From: Alphaproteobacteria bacterium | Lineage (GTDB): Bacteria; Pseudomonadota; Alphaproteobacteria; Bin65 | Assembly: GCA_963665695.1 (NCBI GenBank) | Contig: OY762427.1 | Span: 627,268 to 691,267 of the forward strand | DNA: 64,000 bases | Reading direction: 5' to 3' | In this document: positions 1,036-57,540 of the stretch, piece after piece | Numbering within the stretch: the first letter of the stretch is position 1 | How the letters are laid out: every line of letters begins with the position of its first letter | The notes under the pieces: model-generated | Seen by the model: only the letters and a program-made list of their open reading frames with translations | Database searches by the model: none | Told to the model about the DNA's origin: nothing | Program-made: the position numbers and the translations under genes

Positions 1036-1809
1036 ATGCGCTGCGCCGCACGCTGCCTGGCCGTTCTCGCCGGCCTGCTGCCGGCGGCGCCGCCCGCGTC
1101 TGCGATCGCCGAAGACGTCGATCTCGAGCTCGTTCTCGCCGTCGATATTTCCGGCAGCGTCGATCGTGTCGAGGCCCGGCTCCAGCGGCAGGGCTATCTG
1201 AAGGCGCTGGTCGATCCGCAGGTCGTCCGGGCCGTCACCGGCGGCGAGCGGCGCAGGGTCGCCGTTACCTACATGGAGTGGGCCGGCGCGCATTTTCAGA
1301 ACGTCGTCGCCGACTGGACGGTGGTGCGCGACATGGCGACGGCCAAGGCCTTTGCCGCAACGGTCGCCGAATACCCGGTATCGACCGAGCGCTGGACCTC
1401 GATCAGCACCGCCATCGACTACGCGCTCGGCCTGTTCCGGGCCAACCCCCATCGCGGCGCGCGCAAGGTGCTCGACCTTTCGGGCGACGGCCGGAACAAC
1501 AACGGCGGCCCGCTGGCGCCGGCGCGCGCCCGGGCCCTCGCGGCCGGCGTGACGATCAACGGCCTGCCGATCGTCAACGACCGGCCCAACCCGTGGGGCC
1601 TGCCGCCGCCGAAGGACCTCGACCGCTACTATTTCGAGCGGGTGATCGGCGGACCCGGCGCCTTCATCGTCGTGGCGCGCGGCTTCCGCAGCTTCGGCGA
1701 CGCTGTGAAAGCGAAGCTGGTCATGGAGATCGCCGGCCCGGCCCGCCCGCCACCGGTTCTTGCCCAACGCAGCCGTTCCCAACCCGGCTTTGCCCGGCGC
1801 CTGCCTTGA
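1036..1809 (+). CDS. DUF1194 / vWA-like secreted protein
   Basis: ATG at 1036 lies inside the listed 88..1809 frame. Signal-peptide-like N-terminus (MRCAARCLAVLAGLLPAAPPASA) and a DLELVLAVDISGSVD block typical of DUF1194 / vWA MIDAS-like proteins. It starts 2 nt after the msrP stop. Confidence 0.65.
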   Translation: MRCAARCLAVLAGLLPAAPPASAIAEDVDLELVLAVDISGSVDRVEARLQRQGYLKALVDPQVVRAVTGGERRRVAVTYMEWAGAHFQNVVADWTVVRDMATAKAFAATVAEYPVSTERWTSISTAIDYALGLFRANPHRGARKVLDLSGDGRNNNGGPLAPARARALAAGVTINGLPIVNDRPNPWGLPPPKDLDRYYFERVIGGPGAFIVVARGFRSFGDAVKAKLVMEIAGPARPPPVLAQRSRSQPGFARRLP

Positions 1810-1918
1810 CCGCGCCGCCATCCGGCGACGGAATCGGCCGGGCGCGGCGTACCGGGATCAGAGGGCCGTCGACGCCCCGGTTCGACCGCCCGGACCAGAC
1901 ACGGGAGACCGCTTCGCC

Positions 1919-2563
1919 ATGAGATCCCTTCCCCTCCTGCTCGCCGCCGGGCTGATCGGCCTGACCGCAACCGCAGCCCCCGCCGACGCCCATCGCGGGC
2001 TGCGCCTGTTCGACCGGGCCGACGCCGACAAGGACGGCAAGGTCACCGCCGCCGAATTTGCCGCCGCGCGCAACGCCCGGTTCGCCCAAATCGACGCCGA
2101 CAAGGACGGCGCGCTCGAGGTATCCGAACTTCGCGCGTGGCGGCGGGCCTGGCCGGCGCGCTTCCGCGACGCCCGCTTCAAGGCGCTCGACGGCGACGGC
2201 GACGGCAGGCTCGGCGTCGAGGAATATACCGCCCGGCGCAAGGCGGCCTTCGAACGGATCGACGCCGACAAGGACGGCGCGGTCGACAAGGCGGAGTTCG
2301 ACGCCGCTTTCGAGAAGATCCGCGAACGCATGCTGGCCTATTACGGCCGCGGCGACCGCCGCCATCGCTGGCGCGACGGCAAACGCCGCACGATGCACCG
2401 CCGCCCGGACCTGAACGGCGACGGCAAGGTGACCCGCGCGGAATTCGACGCGCTGGGCAGCCTGATCTTCCTGCGCCTGGACGGCGACGGCGACGGCGCC
2501 GTTACCCGGAAGGAGATGCGGACGGCGCGACGGCATTTCGACCGCGGCGACCGCGATCGCTAG
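1919..2563 (+). CDS. Secreted EF-hand calcium-binding protein with six canonical EF loops
   Basis: Signal peptide (MRSLPLLLAAGLIGLTATAAPADA). Six DxDxDG loops: DADKDGKVT, DADKDGALE, DGDGDGRLG, DADKDGAVD, DLNGDGKVT, DGDGDGAVT. ATG at 1919 is inside the 1760..2563 frame. Confidence 0.8.
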   Translation: MRSLPLLLAAGLIGLTATAAPADAHRGLRLFDRADADKDGKVTAAEFAAARNARFAQIDADKDGALEVSELRAWRRAWPARFRDARFKALDGDGDGRLGVEEYTARRKAAFERIDADKDGAVDKAEFDAAFEKIRERMLAYYGRGDRRHRWRDGKRRTMHRRPDLNGDGKVTRAEFDALGSLIFLRLDGDGDGAVTRKEMRTARRHFDRGDRDR

Positions 2564-2731
2564 GCGGCGCAGCGCCGGCGGCGCCCGGGGGAAAGCGGGA
2601 GGCGCAGGGTTGCCGGATGCGGCAATCTGACTTAGTTCAGCTTGCGAGGGCCGGCACTGCATTCGACGGCGCCGATCCGCGAAAGCCCGCCGGTCCAACG
2701 TCGGGCGCACCTTCAAACCGGGAGGAGAGAC

Positions 2732-3370
2732 ATGAAAATCCGTACAGACTTTTTCGCCTTCATCACGGTGGCCGCCGCGGCGCTGGTCGGCGCCCCGGCC
2801 GCCCAGGCTGTTGAGATCGACGCAAAAAAACTGATCGGCCACGCCTACTTAAAAAAGGCTGGCGCTGTGAAGAACAAGAAATTGAGTTTCGCCCAATTCC
2901 AAGACTATAACCGGTTGATTTTCTATGTTCATGACCGTAACGGGGACGGAGTCCTTGATCTATCGGAGATGCCGAGCGACTTGCTGGGACCCACGTCTCT
3001 AAAAGCCACGCTTATGGGTTCTTATGACGTACCATGGGTTATGCGCGTGCTGCGTTCGATGCCGTACCGGGAATATACCAACTTTATGACCGGAAAATCT
3101 TGCTCCCTTAAAGAAATTGCAGTCGAGAATTTTCTTATCGGCCCTTACGGAGTATGGCCCAAGTTAGAGGACTGGAAAAAAGAGCAGTTTCGGCGTGAAA
3201 AAGCCGCCCTTCTCCAGCTTCTCGATGCCAAAAAAGACTTCAAAGTGCCCGAAAAGGAATTTCATCTCGTTATGAACCTGGCGTTCCACCAGTTCGATAA
3301 AAACAAGAACGGAGTGCTCGAAAGCGACGAGCTTCCGCATGTTTCCGGTATGTTTGCCCTCGGCGGCTGA
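2732..3370 (+). CDS. Secreted EF-hand-like protein with atypically low GC
   Basis: ATG at 2732 is preceded by GGAGGAGAGA. Signal peptide (AAAALVGAPAAQA). Two EF-type loops (DRNGDGVLDLSE, DKNKNGVLESDE). The mature-domain DNA is visibly AT-richer (~47% GC) than the flanks (~68%). Confidence 0.7.
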   Translation: MKIRTDFFAFITVAAAALVGAPAAQAVEIDAKKLIGHAYLKKAGAVKNKKLSFAQFQDYNRLIFYVHDRNGDGVLDLSEMPSDLLGPTSLKATLMGSYDVPWVMRVLRSMPYREYTNFMTGKSCSLKEIAVENFLIGPYGVWPKLEDWKKEQFRREKAALLQLLDAKKDFKVPEKEFHLVMNLAFHQFDKNKNGVLESDELPHVSGMFALGG

Positions 3371-3387
3371 GGACTCCGGGAACCGGC

Positions 3388-4053
3388 GTGCGTGCCACCG
3401 CCCTGTCCGCAGCGCCCTTCGCCCCGGCGCAGGAGCCTCCGTCCCGGATGACGCCGTCCGGGACGCCTGCGCGGCCGGCGGCCGACAAGGCGGCCATTGC
3501 CGCCGATGCGGCGCTGATGGGCCGTGTCGTTGCGGGCGATCCGGCCGCCCACCGCGCGGTCGTGGACCGGCATCTGCCCGGCCTCGTCGCCTTCGCCTGG
3601 CGCCTGGCCGGCGACCGGGCGACCGCCGAGGACGTCGCCCAGGACGCCATGCTGAAACTGTGGCGCCAGGCGCCGCGCTGGAAGCCGAAGTCGCAGATCG
3701 GGACGTGGCTGCGCCGGGTCGCCTACAACCGGTGCATCGACCTGCACCGCCGGGCGCGGCCGGGCGAGGACATCGCCGGCCTGGACCTGGAGGACCCGGC
3801 CTCCGGCCCGGAGCGCACCCTGCTGGCCCAGGAAGTGTCGGCCATCGTCCGCCGGGCCCTGGCGGCGCTGCCCGACCGGCAGCGCGCGGCCATCGCCATG
3901 GTCCATTTCGACGGGATGAGCAACGGCGAGACCGCGGCGGCCCTCGAAGTCAGCGTCGAAGCGGTGGAATCGCTGCTGGCGCGCGGACGGCGGACGCTGC
4001 GCCAGCGCCTGACGGCCCTGAAACCGGACCTGCTCGAGGAGTTCGTATCGTGA
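3388..4053 (+). CDS. ECF (sigma-70 family) RNA polymerase sigma factor
   Basis: Region-2 and region-4 like blocks: AEDVAQDAMLKLW and a C-terminal HTH (LPDRQRAAIAMVHFDGMSNGETAAALEVSVEAVESLLARGR). The start may instead be the ATG at 3448. Confidence 0.8.
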   Translation: MRATALSAAPFAPAQEPPSRMTPSGTPARPAADKAAIAADAALMGRVVAGDPAAHRAVVDRHLPGLVAFAWRLAGDRATAEDVAQDAMLKLWRQAPRWKPKSQIGTWLRRVAYNRCIDLHRRARPGEDIAGLDLEDPASGPERTLLAQEVSAIVRRALAALPDRQRAAIAMVHFDGMSNGETAAALEVSVEAVESLLARGRRTLRQRLTALKPDLLEEFVS

Positions 4054-4063
4054 GGACCGCGCC

Positions 4064-4570
4064 ATGACTGCAAACGGGACCGCAAACGGGACCGAACCGG
4101 GCAGGGAAGCGGCCGTCCGGGCCCTTGAAGACCTGCTCGGCGCCTACGGCGCCGATCCGGCGCGCTGGCCGGCCGGAGACCCGCGCCGCGCCGCCGCCTG
4201 GGCGCTCATCGACTCCGGCGACGCGGCGGCGCTGCAATCCCTGGCCGCCGCCCGCGCCCTGGACCGGGCGCTGGACAGCACGGTTCCGCCCGCGCCCTCC
4301 GCCGCGCTGGCCGGGTCGGTTCTCCAGGCGGCGCGGCGGACCCGGCCGGGGTTGTCCGGCTGGGCCGGCCCGATCTGGAATCCCGCCTTCTTCAAACCGG
4401 CGGGCGCCTTGGCCTGCGCCATGCTCCTGGGGATCGCGGTCGGCATGTGGTCGCCGGCGCCGGTCTTCGTCTGGAGCGCGCAGGCGGACGGCCTGGAAAC
4501 CGAACTGGCGTCCCTCGGCGCGCTAGACGGCAACGGCGACGATAACGGCTTCGAGGATTTCGCCGAGTGA
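4064..4570 (+). CDS. Anti-sigma factor (single-pass membrane protein)
   Basis: ATG follows GAGGA 11 nt after the sigma-factor stop. One predicted TM segment (ALACAMLLGIAVGMW). Position immediately 3' of the ECF sigma gene. Confidence 0.55.
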   Translation: MTANGTANGTEPGREAAVRALEDLLGAYGADPARWPAGDPRRAAAWALIDSGDAAALQSLAAARALDRALDSTVPPAPSAALAGSVLQAARRTRPGLSGWAGPIWNPAFFKPAGALACAMLLGIAVGMWSPAPVFVWSAQADGLETELASLGALDGNGDDNGFEDFAE

Positions 4571-5061
4571 CGCGCCGCACGCTCATCGTTCTGCTGATCG
4601 TTTCCGGCGCGCTGAACCTGTTCCTCGTCGGGATCGTCGCGGCCAGCGTCATCGTTCATTGGGGCGGGCCGGAAACCGCGCGCGGCCCCGGCCCGCGCAC
4701 GGCCTTCCGCCTGTACCGCGCGGTCGACGGCCTCGACGAACCGGAGCGGGCGCGCGCCCGCGCCCTGCTGGAAGAGAAGCATCCGCAGATCCGCGCCAGG
4801 ATCCAGGCCATCCGCGCCGCGCGGCGGGACCTCAGGCGCCGCATCCGCGACGGCGCCGTATCGCCCGAAACGGTCGAGTCCGGCTTCCGCAGCCTGCAAC
4901 GGGCCCGCGGCGAAGCCCAGGCGGCCCTGCATGCCCTGGTCCGGCAGATCGCCGAGTCCCTGACGCCCGACCGGCGCCAGCGCTTCTACAGCCAGGCCTA
5001 CCGGCCGCGCGGCAAGAAACACAAGCGGCGCAAGGGCGACAGGGGCGAAAGGCGCGAGTAA
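4567..5061 (+). CDS. CpxP/Spy/ZraP-like periplasmic protein (LTxxQ family), membrane-anchored
   Basis: ATGA overlap with the anti-sigma stop. N-terminal TM helix. LTPDRRQRF (LTxxQ-type) motif. Basic C-terminal tail. Confidence 0.55.
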   Translation: MTRRTLIVLLIVSGALNLFLVGIVAASVIVHWGGPETARGPGPRTAFRLYRAVDGLDEPERARARALLEEKHPQIRARIQAIRAARRDLRRRIRDGAVSPETVESGFRSLQRARGEAQAALHALVRQIAESLTPDRRQRFYSQAYRPRGKKHKRRKGDRGERRE

Positions 5062-5075
5062 GGCCGGCGCCCGCC

Positions 5076-6098
5076 CTACGCCGCCGCCAGGGCGTTGAAG
5101 GCGGCGAGCGAACCCTCGATCGCGGCGCGGTCCATATCCTGCACGATGAAGACGATGCGCGAGCGGCGGTCGCCGTCGGGCCAGCCGCTCATGTGGGTCG
5201 GCGGATGGACGACATGCTGGACGCCGTTGATCAGCACCGGATCGGCGACGCCGGCGACGTTCAGCATGCCCTTGACGCGCAGGACGCGCTCGCCGTGGCG
5301 GTTCAGCAGCATGCTCATCCACAGGCCGAACGCGGTCCAGTCCATCGGCCCGTCGAACCGCAGGCAGAAGGAGCCGACCCCGTGGCTGTGGTCGTGGGTA
5401 TGGTCGGGGCCCTCGCCGGACGCCCCGGCGAAACCGTCCAGCCAGCCGGCGACCTCGCGCCGCTTGCCGCCGGGCGCGTAAAGGCCGCCGGTCAGCAGGG
5501 CGTCGGGATCGAGCGGTTCGGCGTCGAGGTCGAGGACCGGCGCGGCGGCGTTGATGTTGCGCACCGCGGCGCGGGCGGCCCGGCCGCCGTCGTCCGCCAT
5601 CGCCGATTTGGTCAGCACGAAGCGGTCGGCGATCGCCGCCTGCTTGACCGATTCGGGATGGCGCTGCAACTGCGCCGCCCCGTTCACCGCGTCGACCGCG
5701 GTGACGACGCCGCCGAGCCGGAAATGATGCTGAAGCACCGGCTCGGCGAGGATCGTATAGGCGATGGGCGTCGGGTCGGCGAGGCCGGACGTCTCGATCG
5801 CGATCCGCCGGAAGGCCGGGATCTCGCCGCGCTCGCGCCGGGAGAACAGGCCCCTCAGCGCGCCCTGCAAGTCGCCGCGGATGGCGCAGCACAGGCAGCC
5901 GCCGGCCATCGGGAGCACACTTTCTTCGGCATGTTCGATCAGGTGATGGTCGAGTCCGACCTCGCCGAACTCGTTGATGAGGACGGCGGTATCGCGCAGG
6001 GCGGGCGATTTGAGCAGCCGGGCCAGCAGGGTCGTCTTGCCGCTGCCGAGGAAACCGGTGACGATGTCGACCGGGATCAGCGTGTCGTAGACAGTCAT
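5076..6098 (-). CDS. COG0523 family GTPase (CobW/ZigA/YeiR-like metallochaperone)
   Basis: P-loop GFLGSGKTT, the GGCLCC CxCC metal motif, a His-rich stretch (HTHDHSHG) and a CobW C-terminal-like domain. Confidence 0.85.
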   Translation of the reverse strand: MTVYDTLIPVDIVTGFLGSGKTTLLARLLKSPALRDTAVLINEFGEVGLDHHLIEHAEESVLPMAGGCLCCAIRGDLQGALRGLFSRRERGEIPAFRRIAIETSGLADPTPIAYTILAEPVLQHHFRLGGVVTAVDAVNGAAQLQRHPESVKQAAIADRFVLTKSAMADDGGRAARAAVRNINAAAPVLDLDAEPLDPDALLTGGLYAPGGKRREVAGWLDGFAGASGEGPDHTHDHSHGVGSFCLRFDGPMDWTAFGLWMSMLLNRHGERVLRVKGMLNVAGVADPVLINGVQHVVHPPTHMSGWPDGDRRSRIVFIVQDMDRAAIEGSLAAFNALAAA

Positions 6099-21833: not shown

Positions 21834-22159
21834 TTCGGGTTCGTCCCGGACCGCGTTGGCCGGATTGGCGAGGGAGCCGGCCCGGTCCTGCGCCCCTGTC
21901 TTTGAGGATTCCCCTGCGAAGGGCCGTGCGCCGGGCCGGCTCTCATAAATATTTCCTCTTTATCGACAATATTCCTTGACATCGCAGGTCCAGCGCCCAA
22001 TATCGGCCCGGTCAACGCCCGAAATGCGCCTGCCGCGGCCGCCGGCCGGCCGGGATTCTGGAAAAATTCCTACAAAAATAACTTTTGTGCACTTCCGAAG
22101 GGTGTTTTTCCAACGATTCCAAAGAATTAGGCCCGCCGGGTGTAAAAAAACATATTTTA

Positions 22160-22195
22160 TTGAACATTCATTAAAAATCCGGCCGTTTTCCGGCG
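22160..22195 (-). terminator. Possible intrinsic terminator downstream of kynA
   Basis: On the minus strand, a short GC stem (CCGG..CCGG) followed by TTTTT, within a locally AT-rich stretch. Confidence 0.25.
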
Positions 22196-22215
22196 TCCCT
22201 GCCGGCCGGCGCCCC

Positions 22216-47903: not shown

Positions 47904-48007
47904 CTGGCGGCGGAGCTGGCGGCGGCGCGCCCGCCCCTCGACATGCCGCCGGAACCGGAAAAGGAATAATATCCTTTATATTTGAGCGATCGTTCAATAT
48001 CGAATTT

Positions 48008-48237
48008 CAGAGAATAAGGCGGGAAAACAGAGGCTTGGCCCGGTTTCCTGACCTGGACAGACCGGTCTTTCTTTTTCGTTTTTTCACGCCGCGCAGCCCT
48101 AACCCTTTGGAATCGCTGAAAAACGCCATCGGGGAGTGCCGCAAATTCCGGATTACAAGGATAATAGTCCTTGCCCGGCGACCCCCTGTCCGTTTTCCGG
48201 AGAATAAGCGGAAATACAACGGGTTGGCCGGCGTTCC
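48008..48237. repeat. Two copies of a ~40-bp motif (GAGAATAAGGCGGGAAAACAGAGGCTTGGCCCGGTTTCC / GAGAATAAGCGGAAATACAACGGGTTGGCCGGCGTTCC)
   Basis: Seen directly at ~48010 and ~48199. A third, degenerate copy sits near 48413. Confidence 0.6.
48040..48090 (+). terminator. Possible intrinsic terminator after hyuB
   Basis: Hairpin CCGGT...ACCGG (GACCGGTC palindrome) followed by the T-rich run TCTTTCTTTTTCGTTTTTTC. Confidence 0.3.
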
Positions 48238-48600
48238 GCCGACGCCGCAGGCTCCGGCGCCTGGCCGGCCTCCGTCGCCAGCCGGATTTCTCCGCTCGCT
48301 TCGCTTCGGTCGAAATGACGGGAAGGGGCTTGCGCTTCGCCCGAATCGGCGGCGCGCGGACGGCGCTCCGCACTCCCGTCATTTCGACCGGAGCCCCAGC
48401 CCGCCGGGCCGGGGCGGAGCGGAGAAACCCGGAGGGCGCTCCGTCGACGCCGCAGCCTCCGGCGTCCGCCCGGCGCCCGTCGCCGGCCGGATTTCTCCAC
48501 TCGCTTCGCTTCGGTCGAAATGACGGGAAGGGGGAGTGCTTCGGTCGAAATGACGGCGAGAGGGAGTGCTCCGGTCGGAATGACGGCGAGGGATTTCGCA
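48229..48600. repeat. ~100-bp direct repeat (two copies, ~88% identical) plus four or more copies and one inverted copy of a TCGGTCGAAATGACGG REP-like motif
   Basis: The 100-bp copies are at ~48229-48322 and ~48427-48532. Short-motif copies are at 48298, 48507, 48540 and 48562 (degenerate), with an inverted copy CCCGTCATTTCGACCGG at 48365. Confidence 0.65.
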
Positions 48601-48978
48601 GAGGGATCCTTGGGCAAGGATCAGCCGCCGGCCCGGGCGCGGCGGGCGCGGGGAACAGGGACCGGGACCGGACGGGAAAGGCGCCTGCGGGGTGCTCCCG
48701 GACGCGCTTCGAGCGCATTCCGGGCGTTGACGGGAACCGATATAGGGAACGAAAGGCGGTATTTCAAGGAAAAAAGTGAGGTAATAGGGATTTTTTGGAT
48801 TCGACCCGATATCCCGGATTTCCGCCCCAGGCGCCTGCCGCCCTCCTCTGCATTGCACGGCGGGAGGCGGTACACTGCGGCGGCTCCCGGCCGGGGCGGC
48901 GCGACATTGCCGCGCCTGCCTTGCGCCCCGGTCCGGGCCTATTTCGCGCCGCAACCCGCCGGCGCCGCCGGCCCGCGC

Positions 48979-51963: not shown

Positions 51964-53049
51964 CTATGTTTGCATCAGGTCCGACAGACGCGCTCGCTTT
52001 GCATCGGCGCCCATGTGCAATAGCATGATGCGATCCGGTTCCGACATGAACCAGGCGAACGAACGCCATGCCAGTTCGCTTACGGAAGCCTTGAAGGCCG
52101 AATCGTCCCGATCCGCATAAGCTGTCAGGAACGCGACCTGCCCTTCGCTGAAGCCCGCTTCTGTTGCGATGGCCATCAGCGCTGCCTGCCGTCCTTCAGT
52201 GACCGGTCCTGCCGTTGCGACGACCTCGACGAACACGAGGAGCGGCTCGACCGGTTCAAGGTCAACCAGAATCGGATCAGGCAGATTCCTGTCTGGCTCG
52301 ATTGCGAGGCCGATGTCCTGTGCCAGGCTGTCGTCCCGCGCCACCACCCGATTTCGGCTCTCGCTCAGCCAGATAACCCCCGGTTGCCCCAGGAACCGCG
52401 CCGCAAACTCTTCAACGACCGCCTTAGAGATCGTGGAACTCGGACCGGGTTCCATGTGCCGTGTCTCCCCATTAGGAAACGTAACGAGAACTTTCGCCTC
52501 GCGGGCGACCGCTCCCCGGCGCATGATCGCAACTCGGGCCAATGCGCCCTTGGACAGGTTCGCTGCCCGCCATTCCTCCGTCAGTGTATTCAACGCATCT
52601 TCCGTCAGCGAAGGATCGAACAGAGCTGCAAAATCCGGCGCTAACGAATAACGCGGGAGTGGCGATGTCGTCGGCAGCCCTTCCCTTTCCTTCACCGCGC
52701 CGATTCGCACCAACCCTTCGCGCAGGGTTTCGTCACGGATCGGCTCGCGCGTGTTCGCGGCGTACCACCTCCCTTCGATGTCGCTCGCTGCCGGGCGCAT
52801 AGACACCTGCAACCATCGTTTCCGTTCGGGGCCGTCTGCCAGTGCCGCCTGGGCATCGGACATTCGCGTCACCTGATCGGGGCGTAGCCAGCAATCCTCG
52901 CCATCTACTGCTCCGATATAAAGCATGACAAAAACCGTTTTGGCCGCGATCTCCCGGGTCACATAGTTTCGGTTCGCCGTTCCCTCGGGAAAGATCGTCT
53001 GCAGGCGTTCGTGGATACCGGCGACCGGCAGTAGCGGCGGCAATGGCAT
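51964..53049 (-). CDS. Type II restriction endonuclease, BsuBI/PstI family
   Basis: The C-terminal domain is characteristic of BsuBI/PstI REases (GVIWLSESRNRVV...LVDLEPVEPLLVFVEVVATAG...). It lies immediately 3' of the MTase, with start and stop codons overlapping. Local GC is lower than the flanks. Confidence 0.7.
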   Translation of the reverse strand: MPLPPLLPVAGIHERLQTIFPEGTANRNYVTREIAAKTVFVMLYIGAVDGEDCWLRPDQVTRMSDAQAALADGPERKRWLQVSMRPAASDIEGRWYAANTREPIRDETLREGLVRIGAVKEREGLPTTSPLPRYSLAPDFAALFDPSLTEDALNTLTEEWRAANLSKGALARVAIMRRGAVAREAKVLVTFPNGETRHMEPGPSSTISKAVVEEFAARFLGQPGVIWLSESRNRVVARDDSLAQDIGLAIEPDRNLPDPILVDLEPVEPLLVFVEVVATAGPVTEGRQAALMAIATEAGFSEGQVAFLTAYADRDDSAFKASVSELAWRSFAWFMSEPDRIMLLHMGADAKRARLSDLMQT

Positions 53050-54857
53050 CAGCCGGCGCCGCGGCTGTACAGGCGTTCTACCGCGCGCTCCAGCGTCGCG
53101 CGGTTCGCTCGCTCGTTCACCAGCCGCTCGATCTCCCCCACATCCTCCGGCAGCGGAAGAGGCAAGGCTTCCAGTTCATAGGCCGAAACGGCCACACTTC
53201 CATTGATGCACCGGAAAACCTGATCGACGACATCGCTGTTGAAAAGGACGGCCAGGGCTGCCAGCGCCACCTTCGGGGCGCCATTGAGCGGTTTGATCAT
53301 GTTCAGGTGATTCTCGATTACCACCGCACCGTGTTTCGCCAGGAACGATACCGGTAGTTCCGCCGCTATCAGCCGCCTGCACTGCTCTTTCGCCGTCGTT
53401 CTTTGCAGCAGTACGCACGGAAACTCCGTCACCACCCACATTTCCTTGGCTTTGGGCTCAAAATACGGCTTGTGGTTTCGTTTCTCCGCCCGGAACGAAA
53501 ACACCCCGTCCGGCCGCACGGATTCTGCCCAGATCAGCGGATAGCGTCCCGTGCCGGGGCCGGACCGCAAGCTCGTTTTGTGGCGGTTCCACACCAGCGG
53601 CCCCGTGCTGACAGTGTAGCCGTAGCCGGCAAGCCTACAGGGCATTTCGTCGACCTGCCTCAGCAACGCGCTCTGCGCTTCCGTTCTCGGCATCAGCCAG
53701 GGCCGACCCGGGTCTTCGGGCAGGTTGAACGGACCTGCAGCCCTTGTCGCGACAGAGCCGTCCCGTGCCGGCGAGATGAAATAGACCTTCCCGGTGCGCG
53801 AAGTCGCGTCCCGCTTGTAGGTCGCCAACAGCGTTTCCTGCAGCACGTCCGCGAAGACCCCCTTCCGCTCCGCGACAAAGCCGATGCTCACCGGGGGCGC
53901 CTCCCGGCCCAGCAAACCGCGGAGCGCCTTGAAATATTCTCCAGCCAGGAAGCTCGTAGGGGTGACATAGGCGACGACTCCGCCCGGCCGCGCGAACCGA
54001 AGAGCCAGGTCGGTAAACACGCCGTACAGGTTTGCGTGGCCGAACAGGCTGCGCCGGAATTTTTCGCGCAATTCCGGCGAGAGCCCGATACGTCCGTAAG
54101 GAGGATTGCCGACGACGAGATCGAATCCTTCGTTCCCGACCGCCTGTTCGAGGCTGTCGCAGACACGCACCACCGAATCCGGGCGCGTCCCCGCTTCATG
54201 GCACAAGTCGGCGAGCGCCGCTTCGAGGAACACCTGCGATAGCCAGGCAGCGAACGGATCCAGTTCGAATCCCAGTAACCGCTGCTCGATGTTCTTCAGC
54301 GCAATCCTGGGCTCGCAGTCCCTCAAACTCCTCGCCATGCGCCGGGCCACCGGCGACAGGAAAGCGCCGCCTCCGCACGCCGGATCCAGAATCCGCGCCG
54401 TTCGCCAATCCACCCCTGCTTCCGCCGCCATGTCCAACAGGACTTCGCAGAGTGCCGGCGGCGTATAATAGGCGCCGTTTCGAGATCGAAAGCCGCCCGG
54501 CATCGTCGCGGTGTACAGCACCCCGATCGCGTAGCCGGCGTCCATCGCATCCAGCTTCGCAGCAGCGGCCCCGATGTTCTCGGCCAGCACTCCGGCCTCC
54601 TCCGGCAGCGAAGAAAGGCCGATATCCAAGGGCGGTCTGCGCAGCGGCCGAATACGGCCCGACGCCCTCTGCAACTGTTGCCAATATCCGGAGACCGCCC
54701 CAAAGACCACTCGCCGCGCAAAGCCCATACGATGTTGCTGCTCGACTGACGACGCCAATGCGCGGGCGCGCAAAGACCCCTCTTCGATCCCCGCCAGCGC
54801 CGACTTTAGCGGCGCCGCGTTTCGGACTTCCAATATGTTCGATATTCTCGTCGCCAC
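53049..54857 (-). CDS. N6-adenine DNA methyltransferase (gamma class, NPPY), partner of the BsuBI/PstI-type REase
   Basis: SAM motif I (ILDPACGGGAFL), catalytic motif IV (VVGNPPYGRIG) and a C-terminal TRD-like region. 602 aa. Confidence 0.8.
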   Translation of the reverse strand: MATRISNILEVRNAAPLKSALAGIEEGSLRARALASSVEQQHRMGFARRVVFGAVSGYWQQLQRASGRIRPLRRPPLDIGLSSLPEEAGVLAENIGAAAAKLDAMDAGYAIGVLYTATMPGGFRSRNGAYYTPPALCEVLLDMAAEAGVDWRTARILDPACGGGAFLSPVARRMARSLRDCEPRIALKNIEQRLLGFELDPFAAWLSQVFLEAALADLCHEAGTRPDSVVRVCDSLEQAVGNEGFDLVVGNPPYGRIGLSPELREKFRRSLFGHANLYGVFTDLALRFARPGGVVAYVTPTSFLAGEYFKALRGLLGREAPPVSIGFVAERKGVFADVLQETLLATYKRDATSRTGKVYFISPARDGSVATRAAGPFNLPEDPGRPWLMPRTEAQSALLRQVDEMPCRLAGYGYTVSTGPLVWNRHKTSLRSGPGTGRYPLIWAESVRPDGVFSFRAEKRNHKPYFEPKAKEMWVVTEFPCVLLQRTTAKEQCRRLIAAELPVSFLAKHGAVVIENHLNMIKPLNGAPKVALAALAVLFNSDVVDQVFRCINGSVAVSAYELEALPLPLPEDVGEIERLVNERANRATLERAVERLYSRGAG

Positions 54858-57303: not shown

Positions 57304-57540
57304 GAACGGTCTGCTACTGCGAAAGCGCCCGCTGAACCTCGCAGGCTACAACAGTTGCGTTCGGGCGAACACACGGGAATGTTCTTTTTTCGTTTCCACA
57401 ATATAAGCCACATTTCCCTGCCCGCCAACCCGCTGAATCGAAGGAACTTTGCGGGCTTATCCCCGGACTTTGCCGGGTGCGGATCGTTGCAGCACGCCGC
57501 CGACGCGACGAAATCTCGCCGGCCGCCCGACGGAACTTTC

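Follow-up and report, generated by a model that had tools for sequence, protein, structure and literature searches.

How did a gene of low guanine-plus-cytosine (GC) content, predicted to encode a secreted EF-hand protein, come to stand directly in front of the gene for an extracytoplasmic function (ECF) sigma factor, in DNA that is otherwise GC-rich? The gene is an open reading frame (ORF) for a protein of 212 amino acids, and it lies in a 64-kb stretch of contig OY762427.1 from an alphaproteobacterium (assembly GCA_963665695.1); this whole stretch is called the window below, and coordinates refer to it unless another locus is named. We compared the window with the corresponding loci of related genomes and analyzed the base composition of the gene, the protein that it encodes and the genes around it. 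Our results favor, with a probability of about 0.65, the explanation that the gene is a xenolog, gained recently and by this strain only from a bacterial donor of lower GC content, with a mosaic make-up that changes at the cleavage site of its signal peptide, and inserted before the sigma gene.

Results

The segment is missing from the same site in ten relatives

The loci of relatives were collected in a one-genome-per-species scan using the adjacent sigma factor, which yielded 80 loci. Nine of these (L001-L009) are from close relatives, with sigma proteins 77-95% identical and flanking DNA about 74-94% identical to those of the window; they are metagenome-assembled genomes labelled Rhodospirillaceae or Alphaproteobacteria, and one of them (L003) comes from the sponge Spongia. 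A tenth relative (L087, GCA_022828005.1), which falls in the same identity ranges, was added, giving 81 related loci. The nearest relatives of the window are L002 and L087, with flanks up to about 94% identical.

Results from blastn comparisons showed that window positions 1 to ~2560 and 3377 onwards are contiguous in 10 of 10 relatives (L001-L009 and L087) and that the segment between them is absent. Upstream of the segment stands a secreted six-EF-hand gene, referred to here as the native EF-hand gene, which has orthologues in the same place in all ten. In each relative, 14 nt separate the TAG stop codon of this native gene from a downstream block CGGGAAC...; in the window, the conserved block starts 813-814 nt after the native TAG. 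The flanks are collinear and the site is empty in every relative, and a low-GC orthologue at the same position was seen in none of them, which upholds an earlier reading made from the letters of the window (hereafter, the sequence-only reading) that had pointed to a recent horizontal acquisition of the mature domain and had proposed this syntenic comparison. The segment is thus both absent at the syntenic site in relatives and atypical in nucleotide and amino-acid composition, the combination that we used as an operational test for horizontal acquisition. Because the nearest relatives, L002 and L087, lack the segment, a single gain on the terminal branch is the most parsimonious history, far more so than repeated losses that each restored the same spacer.

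We found no target-site duplication, terminal inverted repeats or structured element beyond chance at the junctions, where there is at most a 3-nt CGG microhomology. The EF-hand gene is the only ORF of the segment, which contains no transposase or integrase gene, and the segment shows none of the hallmarks of an insertion sequence, a miniature inverted-repeat transposable element, an integron cassette or an attC-like end by which a mobile element or cassette would be recognized.

The gene is compositionally mosaic

To follow the base composition along the window, GC content was determined in 500-bp intervals. The mean was 0.682 (standard deviation, sd, 0.042), and the global minimum of the 64 kb, 0.478 at position 2851, is about 4.9 sd lower. 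The ORF as a whole has a GC content of 0.507, which conceals two unlike parts. The first 26 codons (2732-2809), encoding the signal peptide, have a GC content of 0.667 and a GC content at third codon positions (GC3) of 0.81, with host-like codons, whereas the 186 codons of the mature part (2810-3370) have a GC content of 0.485 (0.56, 0.32 and 0.58 at first, second and third positions, respectively). For comparison, the 44 long ORFs of the window have a GC3 of 0.87 +/- 0.06, with none below 0.68. An index resembling the codon adaptation index (CAI-like), built on the other ORFs of the window, gave 0.35 for the mature part vs 0.71 +/- 0.10 for those ORFs. The sequence-only reading had described an AT-rich mature-domain coding sequence against high-GC flanks, with a signal-peptide portion that alone is GC-rich, and had suggested sliding-window GC and codon-adaptation analyses as checks; both analyses bore out both parts of the description.

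Base-composition break-points were then located by maximum-likelihood change-point analysis, which placed them at 2808/2809 (support 2801-2825) and 3355/3356 (support 3353-3361); GC content is 0.71 to the left of them, 0.48 between them and 0.79 to the right. The left change-point coincides with the predicted signal-peptidase site, between AQA and VE, with codon 27 beginning at 2810. Codons 8-25, 18 in a row, all end in G or C, which would be expected by chance with a probability of about 5e-5 at the GC3 of the remaining gene. The composition break-points (2809, 3355) differ from those of synteny (about 2567, 3376).

The difference extends to the protein. The mature protein is Lys-rich, with a K/(K+R) of 0.74 vs 0.26 +/- 0.15 for window proteins; its share of FYMINK residues is 0.31 vs 0.19, and that of GARP residues 0.215 vs 0.367. 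This amino-acid make-up is the signature of a lower-GC genome, and because the protein is built of such "low-GC" amino acids, the core must have evolved in a genome of that kind. Expression-driven composition of a long-resident gene does not fit the amino-acid data.

The leader upstream of the gene has a GC content of 0.708, compared with a mean of 0.705 for the 19 intergenic spacers of the window. Its predicted fold is unstructured (z-score -0.17), it has no Rfam match, and no sigma-70-like promoter or terminator was found in it on the + strand. The signal peptide MKIRTDFFAFITVAAAALVGAPAAQA has, by inspection, a positive n-region, a hydrophobic core and an A-x-A motif, and can be aligned to those of the native EF-hand family. 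In composition, then, the leader, Shine-Dalgarno sequence and signal peptide of the gene are host-like, and the mature domain behind them is foreign. For these reasons, one half of a further proposal of the sequence-only reading, that the gene is a chimera built behind a native-type signal peptide, fits: composition switches at the cleavage site and the leader is host-like. The other half, a native origin of the 5' part, is still unproven and is taken up with the alternatives below. A 25-nt match (24/25) between the 5' part and the signal-peptide region of an accessory EF-hand gene in L087 was considered as a source and rejected, as other loci score equally by chance (44 vs 45).

The encoded protein has two predicted EF-hand pairs, each with one canonical loop

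The new protein matches three Pfam families above their gathering thresholds: EF-hand_6 (PF13405) with 38.4 bits (threshold 25), EF-hand_1 (PF00036) with 35.6 bits (25.4) and EF-hand_5 (PF13202) with 30.8 bits (25.9). The best Pfam stretch is the loop at residues 189-200, not that at 68-79, and EF-hand_6 matches two stretches. A loop counted as canonical if, of its 12 residues, those at positions 1, 3, 5 and 12 supply oxygen ligands, position 6 is Gly and position 8 is hydrophobic. Two loops fit this rule, DRNGDGVLDLSE, which carries D1, N3, D5, G6, L8 and E12, and DKNKNGVLESDE; the loops that partner them, at residues 44-55 and 165-176, depart from it, and each canonical loop sits 24 residues after its degenerate partner. 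Together with the predicted Sec-type signal peptide, these matches agree with the earlier description of an EF-hand-like secreted protein. Export of the protein and Ca2+ binding by its canonical loops are predictions from these features.

A hidden Markov model (HMM) of the native clade scored the new protein at 33.9 bits, vs a maximum of 5.6 in 500 shuffles, with two matches that each comprise a degenerate and a canonical loop. The global alignment with the native protein is collinear from the signal peptide to the C-terminus at an identity of about 24%: loops begin at 35/59, 91/115 and 164/188 in the native protein (214 aa) and at (44)/68 and (165)/189 in the new one (212 aa), where parentheses mark degenerate loops. 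Possible degenerate middle loops near 96/120 were noted by inspection only. Residues 160-201 align gap-free to the first pair of the native family (the second hmmsearch domain), and D165, D169, K171, V172, E176 and F177 are invariant in a four-sequence alignment. When the signal peptide and both canonical loops were masked, the remainder still scored 6.3 bits, a value reached by 0 of 1000 shuffles.

Structure prediction with AlphaFold2 gave a mean predicted local distance difference test score (pLDDT) of 37 from the single sequence and of 47.5 from the four-sequence alignment. The second model was better only at the two EF-hand pairs (pLDDT 65-73, including the blocks 51-80 around loop 68-79), where it shows helix-strand-helix-strand-helix at both pairs. 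Paired EF-hands are linked by a short beta-bridge; the strands of this model, at residues 50-52, 74-76, 171-173 and 195-197, occupy loop positions 7-9 of the four loops, at a pLDDT of only 65-73. Lanmodulins were the only Foldseek matches with a probability of 0.98-1.0, with a template modelling (TM) score on the target of 0.62-0.67.

From these comparisons, we conclude that the new protein is a remote member of a bacterial periplasmic EF-hand-pair group that includes its native neighbour. The partners of its canonical loops have lost ligands, and none of the canonical loops lies in its middle region. Of a bacterial and a eukaryotic donor, the former is the likelier.

Lanmodulin (LanM), the periplasmic lanthanide binder of methylotrophs, is, as predicted for the new protein, a small exported bacterial protein with EF-hand pairs and a loop spacing of ~24 residues. 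The new protein differs from it in lacking an NCBIfam match (NF053806, cut-off 135 bits), in having only two canonical loops and in a linker of ~70 residues without counterpart. Pro at loop position 2 is typical of LanM, and it is absent from the loops of the new protein.

The native neighbour and accessory EF-hand genes

The native protein has loops at residues 35, 59, 91, 115, 164 and 188. It shares with the new protein a signal peptide, a near-equal length (214 vs 212 aa) and 24-residue pairs at nearly the same positions, and it differs in being Arg-rich rather than Lys-rich and in the GC content of its gene (0.72 vs 0.49); the new protein, for its part, has degenerate partner loops and no orthologues. 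All eight canonical EF-hand loops of the 64 kb (8/8) fall in these two adjacent genes, and because of this, a functional match of newcomer and neighbour by chance is unlikely; it may reflect selection or recombination between homologous loci. Against the NCBIfam models of lanmodulin (cut-off 135) and of the XopAW calcium-binding effector, the native protein also reached 84 and 72 bits, respectively, scores that reflect shared short-spaced EF-hand pairs; its loops read DADKDG, without Pro at position 2.

An accessory secreted EF-hand gene was found in two relatives, L008 (8503-9156 of that locus) and L087 (6001-6666), between the DUF1194 gene and the native EF-hand gene, and it is absent from the window and from the other eight relatives. 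The encoded proteins, of 217 and 221 aa, are 63% identical to each other and are clear paralogues of the native protein (103 bits to the native profile). With a GC content of 0.59-0.60, a GC3 of 0.74-0.77 and a K/(K+R) of 0.26-0.29, the accessory gene sits in genomes of 68% GC. Its distribution is patchy: L087 is among the closest relatives of the window, and L008 is more distant. Like the new gene, it adds one more secreted EF-hand protein to this locus, occurs in some genomes only and has a GC content below that of its neighbours; unlike the new gene, it occupies another site, has host-like amino acids and shows a mild GC depression, and the two have no specific similarity.

Searches for relatives and for a donor

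Protein homologue searches spanned about 15 billion proteins altogether. Among 5.8 billion clusters, the 212-aa protein matched only itself, in a single-member cluster. Exhaustive phmmer searches of 1.84 billion representatives returned 90 further matches, all of them local EF-hand matches (25-50 residues) or chains of these in repeat proteins. Metagenome and viral contigs, searched with back-translated patterns, and plasmids and phages, searched with tblastn, gave loop-level EF-hand matches at best. The names of the top matches are a mix of bacterial metagenome and marine metatranscriptome proteins and carry no lineage information. The gene is therefore an ORFan, with no full-length relative among the proteins searched, and the expectation that a BLASTP-type search of the mature domain would reveal its donor lineage was disappointed.

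The new gene stands in a conserved EF-hand/ECF-sigma module

The genes of the locus are, in order, those for MsrP, DUF1194, the native six-EF-hand protein, the new protein, the ECF sigma factor, a putative anti-sigma factor and a Metal_resist protein (Table 1). The anti-sigma assignment is made from position only; the protein has no Pfam or NCBIfam match. The sequence-only reading had singled out the placement of the gene immediately before the sigma gene, and this emphasis was well founded: in 73 of the 80 loci, all alphaproteobacterial (Brevundimonas of the Caulobacteraceae, Parvibaculum, Rhodobacterales and others), the sigma relative has a gene for a secreted protein with several EF-hands just upstream, so that an EF-hand gene directly upstream of the sigma gene is a conserved module. 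The new gene has the same arrangement: it is predicted to encode a secreted EF-hand protein, and it shares its strand with the ECF sigma gene that it immediately precedes.

The sigma gene may start at GTG 3388, 17 nt after the stop of the new gene, or at ATG 3448, 77 nt after it. Differences between the window and L007 in 3388-3447 are without third-position bias, and the NCBI annotation of L087 takes the later ATG. The insertion lies directly upstream of the block CGGGAACCGGCGTGCGTGCC, which is nearly invariant in 9 of 10 relatives, more diverged in L009, and better conserved than the surrounding DNA. This block may provide the context in which translation starts at GTG 3388; should ATG 3448 be the sigma start, it may instead be a regulatory element.

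A search for an ECF-type promoter upstream of the sigma gene (GGAAC-N16-CGT) found none, and k-mer enrichment gave only EF-hand coding words; likewise, a scan of the + strand from 1700 to 5200 detected no site resembling a terminator. Because the genes have the same orientation, with no terminator after the new gene and little or no room for a promoter before the sigma gene, the new gene is probably transcribed on the same mRNA as the sigma, anti-sigma and Metal_resist genes, from whichever promoter lies upstream.

In Brevundimonas, the sigma relatives of which are 47-53% identical to the sigma factor of the window, the EF-hand and sigma genes are only a few nucleotides apart. About 100 nt before the sigma match of these loci (L013-L033 and others), the last codons of the EF-hand gene are conserved as ...GCTTCGGAGTA(A/G), with the sigma ATG following within a few nucleotides. 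We considered GCTTCGGAGTA as an ECF promoter motif and rejected it, as it represents the C-terminal codons of the Brevundimonas EF-hand gene. This arrangement suggests translational coupling or an embedded promoter, as reported for cabp-sigV of Caulobacter. We also considered low GC upstream of the sigma gene as a general trait and rejected it: the GC minima of L036 and L068 are AT-rich spacers beside non-EF-hand genes, namely a MucR/Ros-type regulator gene (judged from sequence) and a putative L,D-transpeptidase ORF.

In Caulobacter vibrioides, cabp (CCNA_02838) and sigV (CCNA_02837) form a Ca2+- and pH-responsive loop, with the promoter of sigV placed inside cabp (PMC13171946). The cabp product is a Sec-exported periplasmic protein of 133 aa that carries three EF-hand motifs; the membrane link of the loop was left unidentified (PMC13171946). 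The window shares with this system a gene for an exported multi-EF-hand protein that directly precedes an ECF sigma gene, both on one strand and with almost no intergenic space. In Caulobacter, a single EF-hand gene precedes the sigma gene, whereas the window has a six-loop native partner with a foreign EF-hand gene wedged in; moreover, the sigma gene of the window is followed by putative anti-sigma and Metal_resist genes, unlike the Caulobacter system as described. The likeness is one of gene arrangement.

Features of the locus and of the rest of the window

Table 1. Positions of the features discussed (window coordinates)
Feature	Position	Strand	Basis or remark
Native high-GC secreted six-EF-hand gene	1919..2563	+	214 aa; conserved sigma partner; Pfam EF-hand_5 101 bits, 6 stretches
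Strain-specific inserted segment	2567..3376	+	About 800 bp net; left junction within 2564-2582, right 3376/3377
Leader	2564..2731	+	168 nt; host-like composition, GC 0.708
Shine-Dalgarno GGAGG	2721-2725	+	6 nt before ATG; direct reading
ORF for the 212-aa EF-hand protein	2732-3370	+	ATG start; ORF list
Predicted Sec-type signal peptide MKIRTDFFAFITVAAAALVGAPAAQA	2732..2809	+	Predicted cleavage after AQA
Low-GC core	2810..3355	+	546 bp, GC 0.48; encodes mature domain; change-points, GC3, CAI-like index, K/(K+R)
Degenerate EF-hand loop GAVKNKKLSFAQ	2861..2896	+	Residues 44-55, partner of 68-79; aligns to first loop of native pair (hmmsearch, MAFFT)
Canonical EF-hand loop 1 DRNGDGVLDLSE	2933..2968	+	Residues 68-79; loop regular expression; aligns to native second loop
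Degenerate EF-hand loop DAKKDFKVPEKE	3224..3259	+	Residues 165-176, partner of 189-200; hmmsearch domain 2
Canonical EF-hand loop 2 DKNKNGVLESDE	3296..3331	+	Residues 189-200; Pfam best stretch residues 184-203; loop regular expression
Conserved block CGGGAACCGGCGTGCGTGCC	3377..3396	+	Insertion directly upstream; alignment and junction listing
ECF sigma factor gene	3388..4053	+	Pfam Sigma70_r2, r4_2, Sigma70_ECF; NCBIfam PRK05602 197 bits (cut-off 208)
Putative membrane-anchored anti-sigma gene	4064..4570	+	168 aa, one hydrophobic helix; position after sigma, kept in L087
Periplasmic Metal_resist (PF13801) protein gene, last of the module	4567..5061	+	Pfam 69.3 bits; same order in L087
CobW-type GTPase gene	After the Metal_resist gene	Opposite	

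Several other parts of the window and of its relatives stood out. L001 (11687-11859 of that locus) and L087 (9220-9502) carry, where the Metal_resist gene meets the convergent cobW-type GTPase gene, 170-280 bp of extra intervening DNA that is absent from the window (5061-5083) and from L002. At 51964-54857, on the - strand, a PstI/BsuBI-type restriction endonuclease gene (PF06616, PF17728) lies beside an N6-adenine methylase gene (Eco57I / N6_Mtase); with a GC3 of 0.68 and 0.76, respectively, these rank second to the EF-hand gene among the atypical genes of the window, and the pair is probably another horizontally acquired unit. A 202-aa ORF at 48171-48779 (+), with a GC content at second codon positions of 0.67, a GC3 of 0.73, a CAI-like index of 0.41 and no Pfam match, may not be a real gene in that frame; the spacer before it (47904-48170), with a GC content of 0.54, is one of the few AT-richer spacers. 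The intergenic spacers 21834-22215 and 57304-57540 have a GC content of 0.57-0.59, vs the intergenic mean of 0.705.

Discussion

The proposed history and its alternatives

Under the explanation that we favor, a segment of about 0.8 kb would have been inserted into the 14-nt spacer between the native EF-hand and sigma genes after the split from the closest sequenced relatives. It would have brought one complete gene, consisting of a host-like leader, a ribosome-binding site, a Sec signal peptide and the 546-bp low-GC core, the last of these from a lower-GC donor, most likely a bacterium that has periplasmic EF-hand proteins of this kind. The product would be exported to the periplasm and bind Ca2+ at loops 68-79 and 189-200, each packed against its degenerate partner. 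Read on the sigma operon mRNA, the gene would supply an accessory Ca2+-binding part of an envelope signalling module resembling CaBP-SigV, and the extra periplasmic Ca2+ binder might buffer or modulate the signal that reaches this module.

Several results weigh against this explanation. The gene is known from one genome and one contig only. No donor or core homologue was found in protein clusters, representatives, metagenome and viral contigs, plasmids or phages, and because of this, the case for a bacterial donor is an argument from architecture only. Outside the canonical loops, the remote-homology signal is weak (the 6.3 bits given above), and the local match is in another register than the global alignment. 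Both structure models are of low overall confidence, and Foldseek found no fold match in PDB at E <= 0.001. The best PDB sequence matches are eukaryotic, although marginal and loop-centred: SCaMC-1 (E 3.5e-4), GCAP-2 (E 2e-3) and secretagogin. The promoter was not located and the start of the sigma gene is ambiguous, so that we infer co-transcription rather than observe it. Finally, a search of the window and the 81 related loci (blastn-short, and Smith-Waterman with shuffles) gave no source for the leader and signal peptide beyond chance, and both are themselves missing from the site in the relatives, which leaves the chimera idea consistent with the data but unproven.

The last point bears on the alternative that an already mosaic cassette was imported in one step from another high-GC bacterium, e.g. 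a related symbiont, with no recombination in this genome. As the leader and signal peptide are absent from the site in 10 of 10 relatives, they are not native to the locus; such an import would also account for the lack of a copy elsewhere in the window or the 81 loci and for synteny break-points that do not coincide with those of composition. However, no such donor gene occurs among the about 15 billion proteins, and the source search for the 5' part covered only 64 kb of the host genome, so we regard the import of a finished cassette as unlikely.

A second alternative derives the mature domain from a eukaryote, the sponge host or another, with fusion to a bacterial signal peptide, which would make the product a symbiont's "eukaryotic-like protein". 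A sponge, Spongia, is the source of at least one close relative (L003), a grafted domain would suit both the core GC content of about 48% and a switch that falls exactly where the signal peptide is cleaved, and the matches to SCaMC-1 and GCAP-2 point the same way, the GCAP-2 alignment running through "FKVP" and resembling the degenerate EF1 of neuronal calcium sensors (NCS). Solved EF-hand structures are mostly eukaryotic, however, so that a bias toward such matches is expected. Both pairs align gap-free to the 24-residue spacing of the bacterial family, whereas EF-hand loops of calmodulin and NCS proteins are spaced by roughly 36 residues; the only high-probability structural matches are the bacterial lanmodulins, and no eukaryotic homologue appeared in the protein collections searched. 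A eukaryotic origin is therefore improbable in our judgement.

An assembly or binning artefact, in which foreign DNA was joined into the contig, would be consistent with a gene known from a single contig. Against this, the segment sits precisely in the 14-nt spacer with the upstream stop and the downstream block intact, and it has the orientation of the operon, its own Shine-Dalgarno sequence, an intact 212-codon ORF and a 240-bp host-like 5' part, which together make an artefact very improbable. Least credible of all is an old resident lost in the relatives, or a diverged in-situ duplicate of the native gene, with a low GC content from expression or selection: the collinearity with the native neighbour and the accessory paralogue of L008 and L087, which shows that the locus changes its EF-hand gene content, would suit it, but 10 of 10 relatives lack the gene, including those with ~94% identical flanks, so that several losses each restoring the same 14-nt spacer would be needed; the time in which the flanks diverged by ~6% is too short for a 68% GC genome to produce a GC3 of 0.58 and a K/(K+R) of 0.74; and the true paralogue of L008 and L087 is only mildly atypical in GC3 and host-like in K/(K+R).

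Implications

A low-GC gene without relatives is, by itself, a common finding, and EF-hand proteins, recently acquired ORFans and EF-hand/ECF-sigma modules are already known; what is new is this member. With the empty site preserved in ten relatives, the very recent arrival of a foreign gene is documented here at base-pair resolution. Two features of the case are less common. The newcomer is of the same functional class as its neighbour gene and stands inside a conserved calcium-sensor/ECF-sigma module, a kind of module that has only just been studied experimentally, in Caulobacter (PMC13171946). In addition, composition switches precisely where the signal peptide is cleaved, a sign that a foreign domain joined to a local export module can yield an exported protein.

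A bolder and rather doubtful interpretation is that the locus is, in this symbiont clade, a diversification hot-spot for periplasmic Ca2+ binders, combined with a domain-precise graft at the signal-peptidase site under a Ca2+-responsive sigma operon. Sister lineages would then add different accessory EF-hand genes independently, between the DUF1194 and native EF-hand genes in L008 and L087 and before the sigma gene here. If true, a hot-spot with such a graft would amount to gene assembly at the level of modules, linked to life inside a host. Altogether, if the new gene is co-transcribed with the sigma gene as favored here, the locus would be a natural experiment on how accessory periplasmic Ca2+ binders alter envelope-stress signalling in a host-associated bacterium.

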